From assembly GCA_965206275.1 (NCBI GenBank), contig OZ242203.1, positions 1,678,485 to 1,742,484 on the forward strand: DNA of 64,000 nt, read 5' to 3'. The notes under the pieces are model-generated. The model was not told the DNA's origin. It did not search any database and saw only the letters and a program-made list of their open reading frames with translations. Positions within the stretch are counted from its first letter, which is position 1. Each line of letters starts with the position of its first letter. The stretch comes from Dehalococcoidia bacterium (lineage in GTDB: Bacteria; Chloroflexota; Dehalococcoidia; UBA6926). Below are positions 1,827 to 11,082 of this stretch, piece by piece. A program made the translations under genes and the position numbers.

Positions 1827-2840
1827 ATGAAGGCACTTGTCTTCGACGAGTATGGGGGTCCGGAAGTCCTGCAATGGAAGGACATTGATGACCCCAAGGC
1901 TGGGCCGAATGACGTCGTCATTGAAGTTAAGGCAACGGCTATCAATTACAACGATGTTTGGGGACGCCGCGGTGCCCCTATGGAAGTGGAATTGCCCCAT
2001 ATCTCTGGCAGCGACGCATCCGGTGTTGTCGTGGATAAGGGCAGTGAAGTCACAACTCATTCCATCGGAGACGAAGTTGTCGTGCACTGTGGGCGCCCGG
2101 CTTTCAACAACCGCACGGGACAGGAATGCAACATCTGGGGTTATGACTGGCCCGCGCTTGACGGCGCGCATGGTCAGTATGTGAGAGTGCCGGCGGAGAA
2201 CGCCGTTCCCAAGCCCACCAATCTCACTCATGAAGAGGCGGCCTCATTCCCGCTTGTCCTCGTCACCACGTGGCGCAAGCTGGTTGAAAAGGCTCCGATT
2301 AAGCCCGGCGACCATGTCCTGATCTGGGGCGCGGCGGGCGGTCTTGGTGTCATGGCCATCCAGATTGCCAGGCTGTTCCAGGCGCACCCGATTGCCGTTG
2401 CTTCTAGCGACGAGAAGCTGGAGTTGTGCAAGGAGCTCGGCGCGGAGTACCTGATTAATCGCAAGACACAGGATGTCCGGCAAGAGATGCGCAATATCGT
2501 GGGGCGGCGCGGCGCACAGGTTGTATTCGAACACCCCGGCCAAGCAACCATGGGACTCAGTATCCAGCTTGCCAGTTGGGGCGGCACCGTCGTTACAAGC
2601 GGCGCAACCAGCGGCTACGACGCCAACATTGACCTCCGCCATATCTTCTTCCGACAGGTCAAGCTGGTTGGTTCCACCCTGGGAACCGTCCACCAGTTGC
2701 AGGATGCGCTGGACCAGGTGCAGGCGGGTCACATCAAGCCGGTCATCGACCGTGTCCTGCCGATGAAGGATGCCGGACAGGGACAAACATTGCTTGAGAC
2801 TGAAGAGGTCGCCGGCAAGGTCATCCTGGTACCGGATTAG
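1827..2840 (+). CDS. zinc-type alcohol dehydrogenase / NADPH:quinone oxidoreductase (MDR superfamily)
   Basis: GSDASGVV, the IWGAAGGLGVMAIQIA dinucleotide fold and a GKVILVP tail. RBS GGAAGGGAG lies upstream. Confidence 0.85.
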   Translation: MKALVFDEYGGPEVLQWKDIDDPKAGPNDVVIEVKATAINYNDVWGRRGAPMEVELPHISGSDASGVVVDKGSEVTTHSIGDEVVVHCGRPAFNNRTGQECNIWGYDWPALDGAHGQYVRVPAENAVPKPTNLTHEEAASFPLVLVTTWRKLVEKAPIKPGDHVLIWGAAGGLGVMAIQIARLFQAHPIAVASSDEKLELCKELGAEYLINRKTQDVRQEMRNIVGRRGAQVVFEHPGQATMGLSIQLASWGGTVVTSGATSGYDANIDLRHIFFRQVKLVGSTLGTVHQLQDALDQVQAGHIKPVIDRVLPMKDAGQGQTLLETEEVAGKVILVPD

Positions 2841-2867
2841 ACTTCCGCGAACGAAACGGTACGTAAA

Positions 2868-2899
2868 GGGGGCGTCCCAGGGGACGCCCCCTTTTATTT
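2868..2899. terminator. intrinsic terminator (GC stem + T-tract); the T-tract is the insertion target of the adjacent element
   Basis: GGGGGCGTCCC-AG-GGGACGCCCCC followed by TTTTATTT, 28 nt after the dehydrogenase stop. Confidence 0.8.
2892..2899. repeat. left copy of 8-bp target-site duplication TTTTATTT
   Basis: Identical octamer at 5957-5964. Each copy directly abuts a terminal inverted repeat. Confidence 0.8.
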
Positions 2900-2922
2900 G
2901 GGACTTATATACCTATGCACAC
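2900..2922 (+). repeat. left terminal inverted repeat GGGACTTATATACCTATGCACAC
   Basis: The reverse complement of 5934-5956 is GGGACTTATATACCTATGTACAC, one mismatch. Confidence 0.85.
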
Positions 2923-3086
2923 TACGCGGCGAAGATTGCTGTCCCCACTTCAATGACAATTCCCACGAGAGCCGAAACCAGTTGAACCAAGAACTCCGCT
3001 ACTGCAACAGGGGCGAATATGAGCGCTACGACAATTAGAATCGCCCAACCTGGGTTCTCACGTGCCCATTCCCACACGTAACTCAT
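2922..3086 (-). CDS. 54-aa hydrophobic small membrane protein (element cargo)
   Basis: Hand translation: MSYVWEWARENPGWAILIVVALIFAPVAVAEFLVQLVSALVGIVIEVGTAIFAA. Its ATG overlaps the upstream TGA (ATGA). It is below the track length cut-off. Confidence 0.5.
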   Translation of the reverse strand: MSYVWEWARENPGWAILIVVALIFAPVAVAEFLVQLVSALVGIVIEVGTAIFAA

Positions 3087-3298
3087 GCGCGGCACTCCTT
3101 ACATCGCCCGTCGTCGTAAAGGACTTCGGGATAGCTAACCTCACGCCCACAGTGAGCGCACTCGTAGGTCTTGGGCTTGCCGCTCCCTGGGAAAGTCCCT
3201 GAGAACATAACGCGGGCTATCTCGTCCGGCGTCGCGTCAATGCGCGGCGGGTAACGCCGTTCCATCGGGCGACCGCGTTCTTTCTTATCGCGTGGCAT
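3083..3298 (-). CDS. 71-aa zinc-ribbon protein (element cargo), function unknown
   Basis: CAHCG...CKEC pair, basic N-terminus, and translational coupling to the 54-aa ORF. Confidence 0.55.
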   Translation of the reverse strand: MPRDKKERGRPMERRYPPRIDATPDEIARVMFSGTFPGSGKPKTYECAHCGREVSYPEVLYDDGRCKECRA

Positions 3299-3362
3299 CG
3301 CTATATCTCGCTTTACAACTCGCTATAAATCCGTATCTGGTATACTGGGGACGCGAGAAGGA

Positions 3363-3396
3363 GGCTCTGTTGCGACACATGTGTCGCAACAGAGCC
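3363..3396. promoter_or_regulatory. 34-bp perfect palindrome (17+17, no spacer) upstream of the cargo tRNA
   Basis: GGCTCTGTTGCGACACA|TGTGTCGCAACAGAGCC followed by TTTG. It lies between the divergent small operon and the tRNA. Confidence 0.6.
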
Positions 3397-3407
3397 TTTG
3401 TCGTAAT

Positions 3408-3495
3408 GCCGGGGTGGTGGAACGGTAGACGCGCTGGCCTCTCAAGTCAGTGTCCATCGTTGGACGTGCGGGTTCGAATCCCGCCCCCGGCACCA
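3408..3495 (+). tRNA. class II (long variable arm, Leu-type body, A73, encoded CCA) tRNA; the hand fold gives anticodon CUC
   Basis: Acceptor GCCGGGG/CCCCGGC, D stem GTG/CGC, anticodon stem CTGGC/GTCAG with loop CTCTCAA, variable arm GTCCA-TCGT-TGGAC, T arm GCGGG-TTCGAAT-CCCGC. Confidence 0.85.
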
Positions 3496-3502
3496 TCTCC
3501 GT

Positions 3503-3573
3503 GGCCCGTGCCACCGGACGGCAACTCCCCTTGACGAAGGGAGCCATGATGGGTTCAATCCCCATACGGGCCA
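3503..3573 (+). pseudogene. degenerate tRNA-like gene (perfect acceptor and T arm, truncated D region, enlarged anticodon loop containing GAC)
   Basis: Acceptor GGCCCGT/ACGGGCC, T arm ATGGG-TTCAATC-CCCAT, anticodon stem CTCCC/GGGAG with 9-nt loop CTTGACGAA. Only 15 nt lie between the acceptor and anticodon stems, and there is no CCA. Confidence 0.4.
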
Positions 3574-3841
3574 CTTTCTCGGAGAAGTTAGTCACTCTAC
3601 AATGCATTGACACTGCGTTGTGACCTCCTTCCCGTCAAGACCATTGTACCTCGATTCTCTGGATCAAAAAAGACCTGGATTTGACCGACTTGCTCTCTGC
3701 CCTCTAGTCTGAAAGAGCCTACCAGTCCTAGTTCCCCGCATTGGGTTACTCAGGGATGGACTACACATGTCCCCTGCGGCCCAATGCGTGGTTCGACTGG
3801 TAGGCAAACAGTCCGATCCCAAGACCGCAGGGGGCACACTT

Positions 3842-4393
3842 ATGCGACTCGTCTTTGTTCTTGCCTTGCTATTGATTCTGGCCGCAGGATGCGACGCAGA
3901 AGCCGCTACACCCACTCCACGCGCCACACGGGTTGTCATGCACACGCCGACTCCTACGGCGACATTCATTCCGCGTCCAACAAGCACACCTGCTCCCACA
4001 GCAACGGCCACGGCAATAGCCCCACCAACCGTGAGGCCAACCGCACCCCCGATTGGCGCAGTCACAGTAACGCCGTTCCCGACACAGCCACCACGCAACA
4101 CGGCGCAGACCTCGCGCGTGCCCGTGAGCGTACAGCGCGGGTGTGATGCGGCGTCTGAATTACTTGCTCTCATGGAGAATCTTGACGAGGCAGGGATAGA
4201 GCGTAATCTGACCAGGCTTGCGCGAGCCATCATAAGCACAGGGGAATATGGATTAGACGCGCAGGGTCGGCTTGTGCTCTCGGACATGGCGTCTGCGGAA
4301 CAATACGTCAACGTGTACGACGCCTTCTGGGTGATTGAGTCCGGCCTCGAAACCTATATCCACCTGTGTGAGTTGCAGGGGTACACGCCTTAG
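3842..4393 (+). CDS. lipoprotein with Thr/Pro-rich linker (element cargo)
   Basis: Signal peptide plus lipobox MRLVFVLALLLILAAGC, then a TP-rich linker and a C-terminal domain of unknown function. I chose the internal ATG at 3842 over the track start 3767. Confidence 0.6.
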   Translation: MRLVFVLALLLILAAGCDAEAATPTPRATRVVMHTPTPTATFIPRPTSTPAPTATATAIAPPTVRPTAPPIGAVTVTPFPTQPPRNTAQTSRVPVSVQRGCDAASELLALMENLDEAGIERNLTRLARAIISTGEYGLDAQGRLVLSDMASAEQYVNVYDAFWVIESGLETYIHLCELQGYTP

Positions 4394-5358
4394 CCGTCGA
4401 TTAGATCGGCGTAGGGCAGGCGCTTGCCGTCTATGCCGCGTGCCATCGCTTCCATCTGCTCAAGGGTGTCCAGTGAGCGGTCGTTGTGCCGCCCCGCGAA
4501 CTCCGTGACGTACCTGTTCAGGTGCTTGGGACTCATCTTGTGGTAGATACCGTGATACCCGCGCTTTAGCATCGCCCAGTGGCTCTCAATGCCGTTTGTG
4601 TGGGCCATGCCGTCCACGAATTGACGGACTGAGTGCTTCACGACGCCGTGCCTGCGATTCAGGAACGGCAGGGCGCTATAGGATGCGTGCTCGTCCGTGT
4701 AGACCTGTACGCCCTCTTCCGTGCGCTCGTGGACGAACATCATAAGCGTTGCCGCACTCGTGGAATGCACGACCCGTGCGCTGACCTTGTTGGTCTCGCG
4801 GTCCTTGACACCCGCCACCACAGCCTTGCCGACCGTGCCACGTCCAGCGCGTAGCTTCTTGTTCCCGTGCTTGTTGTCTTCCTTGCCACCGATGTAGGTC
4901 TCATCCACTTCGACGGGGCCTGCGAATCGCTCAGTTGCCGTATCCCACGCTTGGCGGATCCGATGCGCCATGTACCATGCGGACTTCTGCGTGATGCCTA
5001 GATCGCGGTGCAGCTTCATGCTGGACACGCCCTTGAGGTTCGTGGAGAACAGGTAGAAGGCGAGCGCCCACTTGCCAAGCGGCAGGCGGGAATCGTGCAT
5101 GATGGTGCCGGTCTTGACGGTGAAGTCCTTCTTGCAGGCGTTGCAGTGGTACTGTGTGGTCTTGCGATTGGCATAAGGCTTGCGCGTGTGAACGTTGTCA
5201 CTGTCACAGTCCACGCAACGGACGCCGTCAGGCCAGCGCAACGACACGAACCATTCCTCGGCCTGTGTGTCGTCACCGAACCTCTTGACGGCATCCACAA
5301 GGGTTATGCCCTTGCGGTATGACTTGCCTGGTGCCTTCGCCATTCTTTCCGTGTTCAC
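4390..5358 (-). CDS. IS1595-family (ISXO2-like DDE) transposase
   Basis: N-terminal transposase zinc ribbon (CVDC...CNAC), VEVDETYIGG, and the HTNGIESHWAMLKR...Y.H.S.KHL tail typical of this family. Confidence 0.9.
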   Translation of the reverse strand: MNTERMAKAPGKSYRKGITLVDAVKRFGDDTQAEEWFVSLRWPDGVRCVDCDSDNVHTRKPYANRKTTQYHCNACKKDFTVKTGTIMHDSRLPLGKWALAFYLFSTNLKGVSSMKLHRDLGITQKSAWYMAHRIRQAWDTATERFAGPVEVDETYIGGKEDNKHGNKKLRAGRGTVGKAVVAGVKDRETNKVSARVVHSTSAATLMMFVHERTEEGVQVYTDEHASYSALPFLNRRHGVVKHSVRQFVDGMAHTNGIESHWAMLKRGYHGIYHKMSPKHLNRYVTEFAGRHNDRSLDTLEQMEAMARGIDGKRLPYADLIDG

Positions 5359-5444
5359 CGCCTTCCTGATTTATGTACTTAGTGTACACTATGGCGGCGG
5401 ATTTGTCAAGGTGTGATGTACGCTTATCCACAAGGAGGAACAGC

Positions 5445-5609
5445 ATGGCTCAAACCGCACCATGGCATTCAGTGAATTCAACCGTGTATCACGAATGCAC
5501 CAATTGCACCACGGGGAACAACATTGAGCAGGAGAACTGGCGAGCAGGAACTGGCCAAAGGCGACGATGCCTGGAGTGTGTAAGCCTTATTGCTTCCGGT
5601 GGTTGCTGA
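5445..5609 (+). CDS. 54-aa zinc-ribbon protein (element cargo)
   Basis: Strong RBS AAGGAGG 7 nt before ATG 5445. Motifs HECTNC...CLEC. The track start 5373 is rejected. Confidence 0.5.
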   Translation: MAQTAPWHSVNSTVYHECTNCTTGNNIEQENWRAGTGQRRRCLECVSLIASGGC

Positions 5610-5913
5610 GAAGAGGAACCTGTTCCCAGAACACGATTTCGGAGACAGGCCCTTCTGGTTGACCGTGAATAACTGACCACACACGGCGAATCTCTTTGAC
5701 AGGCAACCCGTTATAGATCGCCACCCCAAGCGCCCGCCATTCTTCGCCATGATCGCCCTCGAAACGGACGGCTGGCTCTGGGTAGCTATGGCCTTTACCG
5801 CCCTGACAAGATTCGTATGTGTGGATTCCCTCACGACGCAGGATTAATACTGCTCTCTCAATACCAGAATCGAGCGGTGGGTCAAAGTCCTCTCGTAGGG
5901 CATACTCATTCAT
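5587..5913 (-). CDS. 108-aa hypothetical protein (element cargo)
   Basis: Only long ORF in this stretch. It starts 21 nt inside the right TIR. Third-position GC looks lower by eye than in flanking host genes. Confidence 0.5.
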   Translation of the reverse strand: MNEYALREDFDPPLDSGIERAVLILRREGIHTYESCQGGKGHSYPEPAVRFEGDHGEEWRALGVAIYNGLPVKEIRRVWSVIHGQPEGPVSEIVFWEQVPLLSNHRKQ

Positions 5914-5933
5914 GGTGATCGCCTACGATGTCG

Positions 5934-5956
5934 GTGTACATAGGTATATAAGTCCC
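5934..5956 (-). repeat. right terminal inverted repeat
   Basis: GTGTACATAGGTATATAAGTCCC is the reverse complement of the left TIR with one mismatch. Confidence 0.85.
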
Positions 5957-5964
5957 TTTTATTT
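5957..5964. repeat. right copy of 8-bp target-site duplication TTTTATTT
   Basis: Identical to 2892-2899. Confidence 0.8.
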
Positions 5965-5997
5965 CCCACACGCGGGCGAGAATGAGAAACTGGGCGC

Positions 5998-6738
5998 ATG
6001 ACTCGTCCTGCCAGGCTCACCCGGGCCGTCGTCCTGATTGATGGCCTTGACCCGCGTGCGGTCCTGCCCGCTGCGGGCCCACATCCGGCATTCAGAGAGG
6101 TGGACGGCATGCCCGCCGCCGATGTGCTTCTCCGACATTTGGCAGGGCAAGGAATGACAGAGGTATGGCTTGTTTCGCGCGCCTTACCCGGTATGGTTGT
6201 TCACTATTTCGGCGATGGGAGCAGGTGGGGAGTCAGGGCGACGCACATCCGACAGGACGGCGCGCCGGGCTCAGGCGGCGCGCTTATGGCTGCTCGCCAG
6301 CAAATAACTGAATCAACACTCGTGATTGACGGCGCTCTCGTCACGGATTTCCACCTCACTGCCATGTACGACGCACACTGCACCGTGGACACAGATGTCA
6401 CCATTTGTTTGACCGGCGAAGTAGAGGAGACAGCAGGATTGCCCCGTGCGCGAACGGATTCCTCCTCCCGTCTCGTGCAGGAAATACTGGTTGATCCACC
6501 GTTCCCGACTGACCCGGAGATTCTTGTCGGAGTTGGTATCTACATCATCGAACCCCAGGCAGTGGAGCCCTTACAGAAGGCAGGAGTGAACGCGGATTGG
6601 GTGACAGATGTCCTTCCCACTCTGGCCCGACAGAGCCGTGTTCAGGGATGGCAGGCCAACCCGGCCACCCGATTCAATCTTCCGCGCCGTGTCCGAGTGA
6701 TGCACTCCCAGACCGGACGCGCATTGCCTTCAATCTGA
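5998..6738 (+). CDS. nucleotidyltransferase-fold protein (sugar-phosphate NTP-transferase-like)
   Basis: An N-terminal AVVLIDG... beta-strand, GAPGSGGAL and overall length resemble GlmU/RmlA-type N-terminal domains. The motif match is weak. Confidence 0.5.
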   Translation: MTRPARLTRAVVLIDGLDPRAVLPAAGPHPAFREVDGMPAADVLLRHLAGQGMTEVWLVSRALPGMVVHYFGDGSRWGVRATHIRQDGAPGSGGALMAARQQITESTLVIDGALVTDFHLTAMYDAHCTVDTDVTICLTGEVEETAGLPRARTDSSSRLVQEILVDPPFPTDPEILVGVGIYIIEPQAVEPLQKAGVNADWVTDVLPTLARQSRVQGWQANPATRFNLPRRVRVMHSQTGRALPSI

Positions 6739-6750
6739 ACGTCTGACCGA

Positions 6751-6779
6751 TTGACCAATAGCCTAAACAGGCTTATAAT
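6751..6779 (+). promoter_or_regulatory. sigma70-like promoter TTGACC-17-TATAAT
   Basis: Near-consensus hexamers with 17-nt spacing, in an AT-rich intergenic region about 125 nt upstream of ATG 6905. Confidence 0.5.
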
Positions 6780-6904
6780 CCAAAACTGGTTCAAAACAAA
6801 TTTCTAATTTTGATTTGGACATGGGTGACCCTTCGAGGGTCAAGGCGCGGGATACGGGAGCAGTTGAGATAGTGGGGCTCAGGCCCAAAGAGGAGTAGTG
6901 TGTC

Positions 6905-7675
6905 ATGCCATGGACGCATGCGGGCGTAAGCAGACGCCTGAAGTTGCTCGGCGTGCTGGGAATCGTTGGTGGACTGCTGTTTGCCTCCATTACCGTCGCC
7001 CTGGCGCAAGAGACCCCGGCGGAGGAAGAAGACAGCGTCACCGCCACCTTTGAATATGATTCAGGGGTCAACCTGGGTATCCCGGGTTCATTCTTCCCCG
7101 GCTTTGATGTGGCGGGATCCCTTATGGTTCAGCCTCGGGCGCTGCAAGTGAATGGCAATGAGATGCCGTCGGCTTCTATCACCATTGAGCCGCTTCAGCT
7201 GGAAGAAAGCCAGACGATGCCCACGCTGATTGCTCCCAATCCGAGCAAGCCGAGCGGCAGCACCGCAGAGTACCTGCGCCGAGCCGTTACCGTGTCCGTC
7301 ACCATTGACGGCGAGGATGCGAGCGACACAGCCCGCTTCAACCCCACCATGATGCTCAATCTGGATTTGACAGATGCTGAATGGGAAGAGGCGGACAATG
7401 ACCCGGATGCGTTCGTCGTTCGCGCCTGGGATGCCGGCAGGAATATGTGGTTGACCGTCGAAACATCTACAAACCCGTTCGATATGGTTGTTACGGCCAA
7501 GGTCGCCCGGGCCGGTCAGTTCGCCCTGTTCAGGGAGGAACCGCCGCCTCCTATCCAGGGCGGAGATGTTTCCCTGAGTTCCATGACGCTGCTGTTCATC
7601 GCCATGCTTGGATTCGCGCTGGCCGGTACTGGTGTCATGTTGGCTCGTGGCACGTTAGGTCGGCGTTCCCGCTAG
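6905..7675 (+). CDS. secreted protein with C-terminal membrane anchor, unknown function
   Basis: Signal peptide LLGVLGIVGGLLFASITVALAQE. C-terminal TM helix LLFIAMLGFALAGTGVMLA followed by basic RGTLGRRSR. Confidence 0.65.
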   Translation: MPWTHAGVSRRLKLLGVLGIVGGLLFASITVALAQETPAEEEDSVTATFEYDSGVNLGIPGSFFPGFDVAGSLMVQPRALQVNGNEMPSASITIEPLQLEESQTMPTLIAPNPSKPSGSTAEYLRRAVTVSVTIDGEDASDTARFNPTMMLNLDLTDAEWEEADNDPDAFVVRAWDAGRNMWLTVETSTNPFDMVVTAKVARAGQFALFREEPPPPIQGGDVSLSSMTLLFIAMLGFALAGTGVMLARGTLGRRSR

Positions 7676-8246: not shown

Positions 8247-9077
8247 TCAAACCTCAAGCGGCGTATCGTCCCGGTTCGCCCATTCCCGCATGGACCCGTC
8301 ATAGTTCCGCGTGCTTTCGTAGCCAACCAGCCGCATGACGAATACTCCGTGCGCCGCACGGATGCCACCCTGTCAATACGTGTAGACGTTCTTGTCCGGC
8401 GTGATGCCGTGTTCAGAAAGCAGTTGTCGTATCTCGGATGCCGACTTGAACCGATGCGTTTCGCGGTCCATCAGGTTAAGCCACTCAAGGTGAACGGCCC
8501 CGGGAATATGCCCCGCTCGCGCGTTGGCACGGTTGTTGGAGCCGTCCCATTCGCCATCTGTGCGAACGTCCCAAACGACGGAGTCCGCCAGCGTGCACGC
8601 CTCTTTCAACTCGTCGACTTTCACGAGCATTGAGTCGTCAAGGTTCGGGGTGAATGTCACGCCTTCCGCCCGCGCCGGACGCTGGAAACTGATTACGTGG
8701 CCGCCGTTAACCCAGCCGCGCCAGCCGCCATTCAGCACCCGCGCGTTCCGGTGTCCATATGTGTTGAGAACCCACCACAAGCGGGCCGCCGTCACACTCT
8801 GCGCATTGTCGTAAGAGATTACTGCTGTGTCATCGCCGATCCCCAATCCCTCACACATCTCCTTAAATTGTGAGGACGTCATCATCAGCGTGCGATTCGT
8901 GTCGGGGTCTTTCACGAAGTTGTCCGGAATGAGGACCGCGCCCGGGATATGACCCCTGTTGTAGCCCGCGTCAACGTCGCAGTCCACAACAACAACATTG
9001 TCATCATCCAAATGCTCCGCCAGCCAATCCGCCTCCACCAGGTACTCCGGGTGGGCATAGTCCTCGTTAGTCATCAT
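8247..9077 (-). CDS. two-domain rhodanese / thiosulfate-3-mercaptopyruvate sulfurtransferase with in-frame TGA (8373-8375) at the catalytic Cys position; candidate selenoprotein
   Basis: The track ORF stops at ...DKNVYTY-TGA. The same frame continues QGGIRAAHGVFVMRLVGYESTRNYDGSMREWANRDDTPLEV-TGA, completing the Y-C-x-x-G-x-R active-site loop and the NYDGSW-EW tail. Start ATG 9077 has RBS GGAGGGGAGGG. Confidence 0.75.
8347..8361 (-). promoter_or_regulatory. candidate bacterial SECIS hairpin for the rhodanese TGA
   Basis: On the coding strand: UGA, then 11 nt, then CCGUGC-GGC-GCACGG. Confidence 0.45.
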
Positions 9078-9108
9078 TCCCTCCCCTCCCTCTATGTAGA
9101 ATAGCCAT

Positions 9109-9711
9109 ATGAGCATTCTCGACAAGGCGCAGCGCATGTTCGGTGGTTCCGCTGCTGTGGACAAGGATCGCGTTCCACCCGGTCAGGCCGTTACGCAGAA
9201 GTTTCCCGTCCTCTCTTACGGACAGACTCCGCAGATTGACCTCGCTACGTGGACGTTTGAGGTCATCGGCCACGTCGACAATCCGGTTCGCCTCACGTGG
9301 GAGCAATTCCTTACTCGAGCGAACGATGCCGTGACCGCGGACTTTCACTGCGTTACCGGATGGTCACGACTCGACAATGAGTGGGAAGGCGTCTTTGTCC
9401 GTGATTTATTCGACGAGGCCCGCATCCGCCCAACCGCCACACATGTCATGGCCCACTGCTATGGCGGCTACACAACGAACATCCCACTATCGGCACTCTT
9501 GAATCCCGATGTCCTGATTGCTCATCGCCACGATGGCGCGCCGTTGGAACCGGAACACGGCGGCCCAGCCCGTCTCATCGTGCCTGACCGCTACGCGTAC
9601 AAGAGCGCCAAGTGGATTAAGGCGCTGGAGCTCATGCCGGAGAACAAGCGTGGATTCTGGGAGATCCACGGCTACAACTCCAACGCAGACCCGTGGAAAG
9701 TGGAGCGCTAA
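9109..9711 (+). CDS. molybdopterin-dependent oxidoreductase (sulfite-oxidase fold, YedY/YuiH-like)
   Basis: FHCVTGWS motif (Mo-ligand Cys context), GGPARLIVP and YAYKSAKWI. Confidence 0.8.
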   Translation: MSILDKAQRMFGGSAAVDKDRVPPGQAVTQKFPVLSYGQTPQIDLATWTFEVIGHVDNPVRLTWEQFLTRANDAVTADFHCVTGWSRLDNEWEGVFVRDLFDEARIRPTATHVMAHCYGGYTTNIPLSALLNPDVLIAHRHDGAPLEPEHGGPARLIVPDRYAYKSAKWIKALELMPENKRGFWEIHGYNSNADPWKVER

Positions 9712-9726
9712 GACTTCTAGCCGTTC

Positions 9727-11082
9727 CTACAGGCCCAGCACTCCAATCGAAAACGCCGCCAGAGCCAGCAACACCCCAAATCCCACAACGTCCGTTACGG
9801 TCGTCCCAAATATCCCGGCGGCCAGGGCCGGATCGACGCCGAATCGTCGCAGGATCAGCGGAATCAACACACCGGCGGCCCCCGCCACCAGCATGTTGAT
9901 GACCATCGCAACACCCAGCGCGATTGACAGCACCAACTCCTGCGACCATAGGAACGCAGCTACCGCGGCGACGAGTCCCATCGCCACCCCGTGGGCCAAG
10001 CCGAGCACTATCTCCTTGCCCAATACCTGTCGTGCATTCCGCAAGGTCAACTCGCCCAGCGCGATGCTTCGCACGGCAATCGTCACCGTCTGTATGATCG
10101 CGTTGCCGCCCTGTCCACCCACAATGGGCAGGAATGCCGCCAAGACGGCCGCGAGGGCAATAGTCGATTCAAACATTCCAACGACGGCTGCCGCCGCAAA
10201 TGCCGTGATTAGGTTCACGAATAACCACGGCATCCGGAGGCGCATCGACCGCACGATGCCGGTCTGAACGGATTCATCGGCATTGAGCCCGACGATCATG
10301 TACATGTCCTCGGTCGCCTCGCCCTCGGCAACCTGGATCATCTCCGGCAGGTCGATGAACCCTAGCAGTCGGTCGTCCTCATCCACGGTTGGCAGCGTGT
10401 CGAGCCGATACCGCTCCATGATTCGCGCGCACTCTTCCTGATCCGTGCCGGCCGGCACAGATATCGGATCGTGGTCCATGACGCGGGACAGCGCGGCGCC
10501 CTGTGGGGCGAGCAATAACTGCCGAAAACTGACGCTGCCCGATAACCTGCCCTCTTCATCCACCACAAAAACGCGGGAAAGACGGCGTGTAAGCGCCTCA
10601 GCGTTGCGTATGGCGACCTGCGCCTGCATAACGGTCATCCGCTCACGCAGGGCAAGGAACTCCGTTGTGACGAGCGCTCCTGCAGTTTCCTCTTCCTGGG
10701 CGAGGAGATTTCGCAGAAAATCCTGCTCGGAAAGAGTTCCAACGATCTCTGAGCGTAGCTCTCCCGGCATCGCCCGCAGGGTACGCGCGGCAGTGCCGAG
10801 CGGAGTTCGATTGAAGATCGCTGTCAGGCTTTCGCCCGGGAGGCGAGCCAGGGGCATGATTGCGCGTTCACCATGCCTGACGAGATACTCCAGCATTGCG
10901 CTGACTTCCCGCGCAGATAGATGGGAGAGGATGTCCGCCCGCGTGTGCTCAGGAAGCTGATTGATGGCATCCGCCACGTCCGCCGGCAGTTGTTCACGAA
11001 GCTCCGCTGCCACTGCCGCAGTGTCGCCCGCCGCAACCCGCTCTGCCAGCCTCTCCGTGTCTAACGTTTCGGGCAAGGTCAT
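9727..11082 (-). CDS. mgtE: magnesium transporter MgtE
   Basis: N-terminal MgtE_N region, a CBS pair, and a C-terminal TM domain with GGQGGNAIIQT and DVVGFG. Confidence 0.9.
   Translation of the reverse strand: MTLPETLDTERLAERVAAGDTAAVAAELREQLPADVADAINQLPEHTRADILSHLSAREVSAMLEYLVRHGERAIMPLARLPGESLTAIFNRTPLGTAARTLRAMPGELRSEIVGTLSEQDFLRNLLAQEEETAGALVTTEFLALRERMTVMQAQVAIRNAEALTRRLSRVFVVDEEGRLSGSVSFRQLLLAPQGAALSRVMDHDPISVPAGTDQEECARIMERYRLDTLPTVDEDDRLLGFIDLPEMIQVAEGEATEDMYMIVGLNADESVQTGIVRSMRLRMPWLFVNLITAFAAAAVVGMFESTIALAAVLAAFLPIVGGQGGNAIIQTVTIAVRSIALGELTLRNARQVLGKEIVLGLAHGVAMGLVAAVAAFLWSQELVLSIALGVAMVINMLVAGAAGVLIPLILRRFGVDPALAAGIFGTTVTDVVGFGVLLALAAFSIGVLGL

Follow-up and report, generated by a model that had tools for sequence, protein, structure and literature searches.

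The window analysed here is a stretch of 64,000 nucleotides from a Dehalococcoidia bacterium (contig OZ242203.1 of assembly GCA_965206275.1), and between its genes for a zinc-dependent dehydrogenase and a nucleotidyl-transferase it contains a 3,057-bp element of the IS1595 family of insertion sequences (IS). The element is present in one copy in its genome and carries, besides its transposase gene, an irregular transfer RNA (tRNA) gene (tRNA1), a tRNA-like gene (tRNA-like 2), a perfect palindrome, a putative lipoprotein gene and several small open reading frames (ORFs). Their positions are collected in Table 1, together with those of tRNA genes from related loci (labelled L throughout).

The ends of the element are 23-nt inverted repeats that agree at 22 of 23 positions, with a C/T difference at repeat position 19 as the sole mismatch, and the pair is the longest inverted repeat found within positions 2500 to 6500. 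At up to three mismatches, the 23-nt repeat has two matches in the window, against none in 100 dinucleotide-preserving shuffles. Both repeats are abutted by the octamer TTTTATTT, which on the left is the T-tract of a G+C-rich hairpin that a terminator scan also lists, and excising 2900-5964 restores this terminator together with its T-tract. The inverted repeats with one mismatch and the perfect 8-bp duplication, both of which had been proposed in an earlier reading made from the letters alone (the sequence-only reading), are exact, and all coordinates hold. Between this single pair of repeats we find one transposase gene and about 2 kb of other genes, which is the arrangement of a transporter IS. 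Positions 2900-5956 are almost certainly an intact, mobile, passenger-carrying IS1595 element of this kind with irregular tRNA cargo.

Table 1. Features of the element and its surroundings in the window, and irregular tRNA genes in related loci
Locus	Feature	Coordinates	Strand	Description
Window	Zinc-dependent dehydrogenase gene	1827-2840		Upstream host gene
Window	Terminator hairpin	2865-2894	+	Intrinsic terminator of the dehydrogenase gene, host DNA outside the element; 14-bp perfect inverted repeat, 2-nt loop
Window	Target-site duplication, left copy	2892-2899	.	TTTTATTT, 8 bp, in terminator T-tract; abuts left repeat
Window	Left terminal inverted repeat	2900-2922	+	GGGACTTATATACCTATGCACAC; end distal to transposase
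Window	57-aa ORF	2922-3095	-	Hydrophobic membrane ORF, open frame only
Window	zn71	3083-3298	-	71 aa; N-terminal KKERGRP..YPPRID (AT-hook-like) and CxxC...CxxC zinc ribbon
Window	Possible extended -10 element	3338-3346	+	TGGTATACT, read from the sequence; candidate for the tRNA transcript
Window	Palindrome	3362-3397	.	36 bp, perfect (18+18, no spacer), between divergent zn71 and tRNA1
Window	tRNA1	3408-3495	+	88 nt, anticodon CUC; ARAGORN, Rfam RF00005
Window	tRNA-like 2	3501-3576 (approx.)	+	Loop UUGACGA, anticodon GAC, no CCA encoded
Window	Structured leader	3691-3836	+	Before lipoprotein gene; -71.2 kcal/mol, z-score -5.1
Window	Putative lipoprotein gene	3842-4393	+	183 aa; signal peptide, lipobox LAAGC (read from the sequence), Pro/Thr-rich linker
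Window	Transposase gene	4390-5358	-	IS1595-family DDE transposase, 322 aa (317 aa if the start is the ATG at 5343)
Window	Sigma-70-like promoter	5381-5409	-	TTGACA-17 nt-TACACT, 10/12 matches, consensus match only; upstream of transposase
Window	zn54	5445-5609	+	54 aa, CxxC...CxxC; convergent with orf108, overlaps its 3' end
Window	orf108	5587-5913	-	108 aa; motif FDPPLD...ESCQGGxGHSYPEP
Window	Right terminal inverted repeat	5934-5956	-	GGGACTTATATACCTATGTACAC (minus strand); transposase end
Window	Target-site duplication, right copy	5957-5964	.	TTTTATTT, 8 bp; abuts right repeat
Window	Nucleotidyl-transferase gene	5998-6738		Downstream host gene
L100 (element 4732-7364)	tRNA	4800-4886	-	Leucine-type, long variable arm, A73, anticodon AGA, 50.6 bits
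L100 (element 4732-7364)	tRNA	6978-7050	-	Short variable arm, no G3:U70, anticodon UGC, 47.2 bits
L107 (element 4546-6645)	tRNA	6498-6571	-	U37, slipped acceptor stem, anticodon ACC, 48.5 bits
L113 (left repeat-like site 4204, right end not found)	tRNA	4404-4488	+	Leucine-type, A73-CCA, anticodon ACC, 50.8 bits
L160 (element about 4882-6821)	tRNA	6575-6667	-	Anticodon AGC, 30.5 bits
L102 (Acidobacteriota)	tRNA-Sec-like	6683-6775	-	Anticodon UUA (would read the ochre stop), 43.8 bits
L158 (Acidobacteriota)	tRNA-Sec-like	6331-6424	-	Anticodon UAA, 36.3 bits

Empty sites and the transposase

With respect to related genomes, we observe that the site is empty in all eight contigs recovered, two of them (L001 and L002) by exact-protein look-up of the dehydrogenase and six (L168-L173) via a cluster member. 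Each contig shows the hairpin, a single TTT(C/T)ATTT and then CCC..., with the flanking genes adjacent in all eight and the nucleotidyl-transferase gene directly after the dehydrogenase gene in L001 and L002. The empty site of L171 carries TTTTATTT itself, and that of L002 reads ...GGGACGCCCCC TTTCATTT CCCACACGCGGGC...; in the BLASTN comparison with L002, the left flank stops at 2743 and the right flank begins at 2736, an overlap of exactly 8 bp. Flank identity is 94-97% for L002 and about 84-92% for L001, and a third lineage has a different terminator stem. Across the eight contigs, the terminator stem varies between lineages via compensatory changes, and the T-tract and the next 30 nt are conserved; because the stems differ in this compensatory way, the hairpin is taken to be functional. 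The empty site that the sequence-only reading proposed to look for in relatives is therefore found, repeat-bounded presence and absence at homologous loci is seen with a single 8-mer in eight of eight relatives, and the intact terminators confirm that the element landed in the T-tract of the dehydrogenase gene.

The insertion itself is shown directly by these empty sites and, since they extend over several lineages, one insertion in the lineage of the window is the simplest history: an intact IS1595-family element has recently jumped into a gene terminator. When the transposase was looked up exactly, from either of its two possible starts, no other contig came back, and at 90% identity it clusters with no other protein; a second copy or a donor is therefore not known. 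The relatives retrieved by a scan of JGI metagenomes for close copies did not exceed 58% identity. By the transposition chemistry presumed from the IS1595 family, the transposase would bind the 23-bp repeats, cut an A/T-rich 8-mer with an 8-bp stagger and insert the element there, and filling in of the stagger at the dehydrogenase terminator T-tract would produce the TTTTATTT duplication. The element has about 2 kb of variable cargo, as almost all of its relatives do, plus zn71 beside the repeat distal to the transposase.

The transposase passes the cut-offs of PF12762 (DDE_Tnp_IS1595; E 3.5e-38, 131 bits, cut-off 27), PF12760 (zinc ribbon; 2.1e-07, 31.2 bits, cut-off 25.4) and NCBIfam NF033547 (175.7 bits, cut-off 75), all three of which agree with the proposal that the only transposase of the segment is of the IS1595 type. 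An alignment of 28 homologues that are 57-80% identical to it shows no variation at C48, C51, C72, C75, D152, D222 and E258 and very little at K265, and by the family motif D152, D222, E258 and K265 would be the catalytic D, D and E(7)K. Homologues number more than 8000, with the nearest database relative at 79% identity and the closest relatives in Dehalococcoidia metagenome-assembled genomes (MAGs). Among the ORFs, repeats and Pfam matches of the element, there is no sign of a further transposase, an integrase or an inner pair of repeats. Passenger-carrying transporter ISs have been described and are reported to be restricted to the IS1595 and IS66 families (bioRxiv 10.1101/2021.05.26.445724); the passenger-carrying IS1595 members mentioned in the sequence-only reading are documented there. 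The window element resembles IS1595 transporter ISs in its zinc-ribbon DDE transposase, GG..TTAT repeat starts, 8-bp duplication and passengers within the repeats, and differs from them in having tRNA genes among its passengers, along with a conserved zinc-ribbon gene that has an AT-hook-like motif.

Related elements and their protein cargo

We surveyed 164 loci around relatives of the transposase, searching each for an 8-bp direct repeat that brackets an inverted repeat, and obtained 61 distinct related elements with a perfect 8-bp duplication and the repeat consensus GGGAATTATATAC(Y)T. The duplications are 86% A+T, compared with 48% in the 300-bp flanks, and because this transposase clade generally prefers A/T-rich 8-mers, a T-tract target in a 60% G+C genome fits the pattern. 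The elements have a median size of 3,017 bp, 56 of the 61 exceed 1.5 kb and nearly all have cargo; typically, some 106 bp separate the start of the transposase from one repeat, and about 1.9 kb of cargo follows the transposase. The 23-nt repeat of the window is found identically in L003, whose transposase is 79% identical. By record title, the relatives are Dehalococcoidia, Poribacteria, Poriferihabitans, Acidobacteriota and Arenicellales, names which suggest that they are largely MAGs of marine sponge symbionts. As an insertion sequence, the window element is a textbook case of a clade with A/T-rich, terminator-type targets, and it provides a cleanly delimited reference for a large and poorly catalogued IS1595 clade of Chloroflexota and other MAGs.

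Cargo differs even in sister elements, with an N6/N4 DNA methyltransferase and HNH protein in L167 (4410-8274) and a bPH_3 protein in L166 (4453-6867), a contrast indicating that cargo turnover in the clade is high. In one locus, L158, the transposase is frameshifted and accompanied by a second-transposase fragment that is 75% identical to the transposase of the window (coordinates listed: 5001-5925, 6487-6729, 8661-10463), and a group II intron lies directly outside the element.

Several of the small ORFs recur in this clade. With tblastn, homologues of zn71 turned up in the corresponding place in L003, L004, L088, L091-93, L095-99 and L122; the family (32 aligned sequences of 69-96 aa, with RGRP and four cysteines invariant or conserved) always adjoins the terminal repeat distal to the transposase and is unnamed in every library. 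Its AlphaFold2 model (pLDDT 68.7) is too uncertain for a structure search, and from its sequence features zn71 is probably a DNA-binding accessory or regulator of the clade. The orf108 family has 22 members, none of them named, with homologues in elements L089, L090 and L106; its AlphaFold2 model reaches a pLDDT of 90.2, and Foldseek against the PDB gave nothing at E≤0.001 and no TM-score above 0.52. Homologues of zn54 were detected by tblastn in L106, L081 and L154, in the first two beside homologues of orf108, and the convergent, 3'-overlapping pair is seen to move jointly between elements (5445-5913 in the window, 5947-6460 in L106, 9-411 in L081). The 57-aa membrane ORF has neither a homologue in any fetched locus nor a family match, and it may not be a real gene. 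With respect to the small ORFs that the sequence-only reading had listed as cargo, zn71, zn54 and orf108 thus belong to conserved families, and the membrane ORF is left without support.

The lipoprotein has its sole homologue among the fetched loci in L004, at 48% identity. Neither the lipoprotein nor orf108, zn54, zn71 or the 57-aa ORF has a credible match in Pfam, NCBIfam, PADLOC or PHROGs. The outer stem of the structured leader pairs with a G-rich stretch just 5' of the ATG at 3842. The leader is 82% identical in L004, with the pairing kept and only G.U-compatible changes, and the protein downstream is 48% identical. No Rfam family matches 3691-3836, and the region 3690-3850 may be a cis-regulatory RNA.

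Irregular tRNA genes in the window and the clade

Because the tRNA genes lie inside the repeats, they are cargo of the element, as the sequence-only reading had it for both the tRNA and the tRNA-like gene. tRNA1 scores 54.8 bits against Rfam RF00005 (gathering score 29; model positions 1-71), and in the Rfam alignment its anticodon arm is CUGGC-CUCUCAA-GUCAG, with a 7-nt loop, U33 and A37. It shows all universal features of a tRNA. The acceptor stem has 7 bp, the T-stem 5 bp, the D-stem 3 bp and the long variable arm a stem of 5 bp; the discriminator is A73, CCA is encoded, and the minimum-energy fold is a cloverleaf. Among its BLAST matches in phage records, all annotated ones are tRNA-Leu and none is tRNA-Glu. 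To judge from its sequence, tRNA1 is a leucine-type body with the glutamate anticodon CUC (codon GAG), and although the body is that of a tRNA-Leu, the anticodon is none of the standard tRNA-Leu anticodons (NAG or YAA). The label tRNA-Glu(CUC) given by ARAGORN was rejected on account of the long variable arm and of BLAST matches to tRNA-Leu only.

tRNA-like 2 combines a 7-bp acceptor stem (GGCCCGU/ACGGGCC, extendable to 9 bp) and a T-arm AUGGG-UUCAAUC-CCCAU with a short 3-bp D-arm and a 6-bp anticodon stem containing a C.A mismatch, and has no long variable arm. It folds as a cloverleaf (z-score -3.1) and is detected by ARAGORN only at relaxed or mitochondrial settings; its T-arm shares 16 of 17 bases with the in-element tRNA of L100 whose anticodon is UGC. 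Upstream of both genes, the 36-bp palindrome would, as RNA, fold at -33.4 kcal/mol (z-score -8.1) and is a candidate operator or leader hairpin. Sub-threshold Rfam matches to STnc320 and naRNA4 fall on the terminator and the palindrome and were dismissed.

To survey the tRNAs of the clade, the 164 loci were run through ARAGORN at default settings, and the 26 closest ones (264 kb) were searched with Rfam at its gathering threshold. All 10 distinct standard tRNAs that could be placed relative to an element (in L005, L055, L070, L082, L137 and L146) lie outside the repeats; standard tRNAs in L012 and L075 (2) were left unplaced, no repeats having been found there. With the in-element tRNAs counted at default ARAGORN settings, all of them mismatched or with A34, five irregular and no standard tRNAs lie inside elements and no irregular and 10 standard ones outside (Fisher, P ~3e-4). 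Four in-element anticodons (AGA, ACC, ACC and AGC) have A34, which is rare in bacterial anticodons. In the tRNA-Sec-like genes of L102 and L158, the acceptor stem is 8 or 9 bp long, the variable arm is long and the discriminator is G73; both genes score below the gathering score of the tRNA-Sec model (47). They are 93% identical, and a cluster of the few differences between them lies in the anticodon arm. Since irregular tRNAs recur as cargo of the clade, the elements act as vehicles for them.

In four loci we observe that elements lie 114-425 bp downstream of standard tRNA genes (L005, 4613-4704; L055, 4745-4819; L070, 1215-1290; L146, 4711-4786); such positions fit the preference for A/T-rich terminators, and they point to a possible route of tRNA capture. 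Further tRNA-like candidates in L004 and L145 have no Rfam recognition at E≤5 and were given little weight. When its thresholds are relaxed, ARAGORN yields mostly noise. A self-suppressor model, in which the tRNA reads a stop codon in its own transposase gene, was discarded, as there are no in-frame stops in L102, L100, L107, L113 or L004. L154, which has a CUA tRNA-like gene, was set aside as a pseudogene (TAA and TGA stops in the transposase, zinc ribbon deleted, catalytic D lost).

A literature search for IS1595 elements with tRNA passengers gave no such report, in line with the remark in the sequence-only reading that cargo of this kind had not been seen before; it is nevertheless not unique to the window copy, since it recurs in relatives.

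Possible roles of the tRNA cargo

In Escherichia coli, leucyl-tRNA synthetase (LeuRS) recognizes A73 and the tertiary structure of its tRNA and does not read the anticodon. As LeuRS ignores the anticodon, tRNA1 is plausibly chargeable with leucine, and we tentatively read it as a working dual-identity tRNA that could insert leucine at GAG codons, the likeliest of the readings considered for it, though still less likely than not. In the flanking host genes, GAG is the major glutamate codon (40.6 per 1000 codons), and strong expression of tRNA1 should therefore be harmful; the cell would have to express it weakly or only under certain conditions. A broader and more doubtful proposal is that cargo-carrying IS1595 elements are specialized in taking tRNAs of dual-identity or suppressor type, among them the hitherto 'homeless' allo-tRNAs, from one bacterial genome to another, with tRNA1 charged with leucine and recoding a fraction of GAG codons under the control of the element, possibly via the palindrome and the AT-hook-like zinc-ribbon protein.

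Several observations weigh against these proposals. If the major glutamate codon were misread as leucine on a wide scale, the cost to the cell would be high. A scan for sigma-70 consensus promoters upstream of the tRNAs called no promoter and found no -35 hexamer, and tRNA-like 2 has no Rfam match at E≤1 (2500-6500). Pairwise identity among the leucine-type tRNAs (window, L100 and L113) is 60-66%, and they are no closer to each other than to standard tRNAs, which indicates that they are not one conserved lineage. The closest relatives, L003 and L004 (transposases 78-79% identical), are without tRNA1 and tRNA-like 2 at the homologous position, and L004 aligns on both sides of the tRNA block yet lacks the block itself. 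Three elements with transposases 70-71% identical have cargo unrelated to that of the window, and because of this and of the absence from L003 and L004, the tRNAs are optional cargo. With respect to classification, the presumed resemblance to the ISNwi1 subgroup (GGnnnTTAT ends, E as the third catalytic residue, size with passengers) is no more than a lead to a possible assignment.

Among known unusual tRNAs, the allo-tRNAs have anticodons that contradict their identity elements and sometimes occur in tandem, and one allo-tRNA copy overlaps 'a transposon-related protein', from which a link to transposable elements was speculated (Mukai et al. 2017, PMC5389517). The genes of L102 and L158 show the allo-tRNA signature and are the only allo-like ones. 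tRNA1 is instead of the 7/5 type with A73, unlike the 8/4 or 9/3 serine-type allo-tRNAs, and tRNA-like 2, of the 7/5 (or 9/5) type, lacks a long variable arm. Furthermore, no repeat-bounded element was shown for the allo-tRNAs (PMC5389517), whereas the tRNAs here lie within a mobile unit with empty-site controls. The tRNA-ProX of Streptomyces and Kitasatospora are dual-identity tRNAs in which A34 anticodons are common (PMC11415595). Like them, tRNA1 joins the body of one isoacceptor family to the anticodon of another, and A34 is also found in the four in-element tRNAs of relatives; unlike them, tRNA1 has a leucine-type body and a transposon as its carrier, and the element holds no synthetase. 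The tRNA genes and tRNA gene arrays of phages and plasmids likewise move on mobile elements. Most of those tRNAs are standard isoacceptors, which tune the decoding capacity or give escape from anticodon nucleases; the tRNA of the window, in contrast, is mismatched and travels on a 3-kb transposon.

One alternative is that the tRNA genes are passive hitch-hikers, captured from the host via an alternative end and now decaying and inactive. The position of clade members shortly downstream of standard tRNA genes (L005, L055, L070 and L146) is what such capture would leave, cargo is highly variable, and the closest relatives are without tRNAs; L004, L145 and L154 have candidates that, like tRNA-like 2, are structurally degraded or unseen by Rfam, and the transposases of L154 and L158 are dead. 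Decay does not match the state of tRNA1, whose stems are perfect, which keeps U33, A37, the T-loop, A73 and CCA at a score of 54.8 bits, and whose anticodon differs from any leucine anticodon at two or more of its three positions, a pattern not expected of neutral decay, which should hit the stems equally. Neither does it match the clade, where all five in-element tRNAs are mismatched or have A34 and all 10 outside are standard (P ~3e-4), and where the 93% identical tRNAs of L102 and L158 have a cluster of their few differences in the anticodon arm. We consider passive carriage unlikely, though it deserves serious weight.

A second alternative, to which we give a similarly low but appreciable chance, is that the tRNA-like genes have a function outside decoding. 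They might punctuate the cargo transcripts with RNase P/Z processing signals, act as decoys that divert nucleases from other tRNAs, or regulate the element. Many allo-tRNA(UAU) species are inactive in translation (Mukai et al., PMC5389517), the tRNA pair of the window is placed between the 36-bp palindrome and the strongly structured leader, and 9 of the 11 in-element tRNAs and tRNA-like genes of relatives are on the strand opposite the transposase. A processing signal would, however, need neither the encoded CCA nor the standard anticodon loop of tRNA1, and PADLOC, Pfam and NCBIfam return no nuclease, toxin or defence gene in the element.

It is very improbable that the outer repeats are foreign to the transposase and enclose a composite, a nested structure or another island that merely holds an IS1595 gene. 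What speaks for it is that the transposase starts about 600 bp from the nearer repeat, where the clade median is 106 bp, with orf108 and zn54 in between, and a short repeat-related GTGTACA motif lies near the transposase promoter. Against this, the same repeat consensus brackets transposase homologues in the 61 elements, each with its 8-bp duplication, and the identical 23-nt repeat accompanies the 79% identical transposase of L003; the element has no further transposase, no integrase and no inner pair of repeats, and the orf108 module is also cargo in L089, L090 and L106. Scarcely credible is the idea that no insertion took place in the lineage of the window, an ancestral element having been lost precisely in relatives or the long-read assembly having created an artefact: only one genome carries the element and its junctions come from the assembly, but in eight contigs of at least three diverged lineages (L001 and L002 flanks, 84% to 97%) the 8-mer is clean and occurs once, a single insertion is a far more parsimonious history than several independent excisions that leave no footprint, and a perfect duplication with intact repeats is unlike the product of a misassembly.

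If cargo-carrying IS1595 elements do spread working dual-identity tRNAs such as tRNA1 may be, mistranslation would be a transposable trait. For mismatched tRNAs such as allo-tRNAs and tRNA-ProX, a transposon link had previously only been guessed, and here one lies inside proven element boundaries; in related elements, mismatched tRNAs recur and standard ones stay outside, which offers a concrete vehicle for their spread. The element, or tRNA1 with its upstream palindrome, is a compact construct for studying how bacteria deal with a mobile tRNA that mistranslates, be it by tolerating, regulating or exploiting it.

Elsewhere in the window, a 451-aa ORF (9727-11082, minus strand) that by eye resembles an MgtE-type magnesium transporter lies between molybdopterin-oxidoreductase and FolB genes, and it is missing at the same position in L001, L002, L168 and L169.

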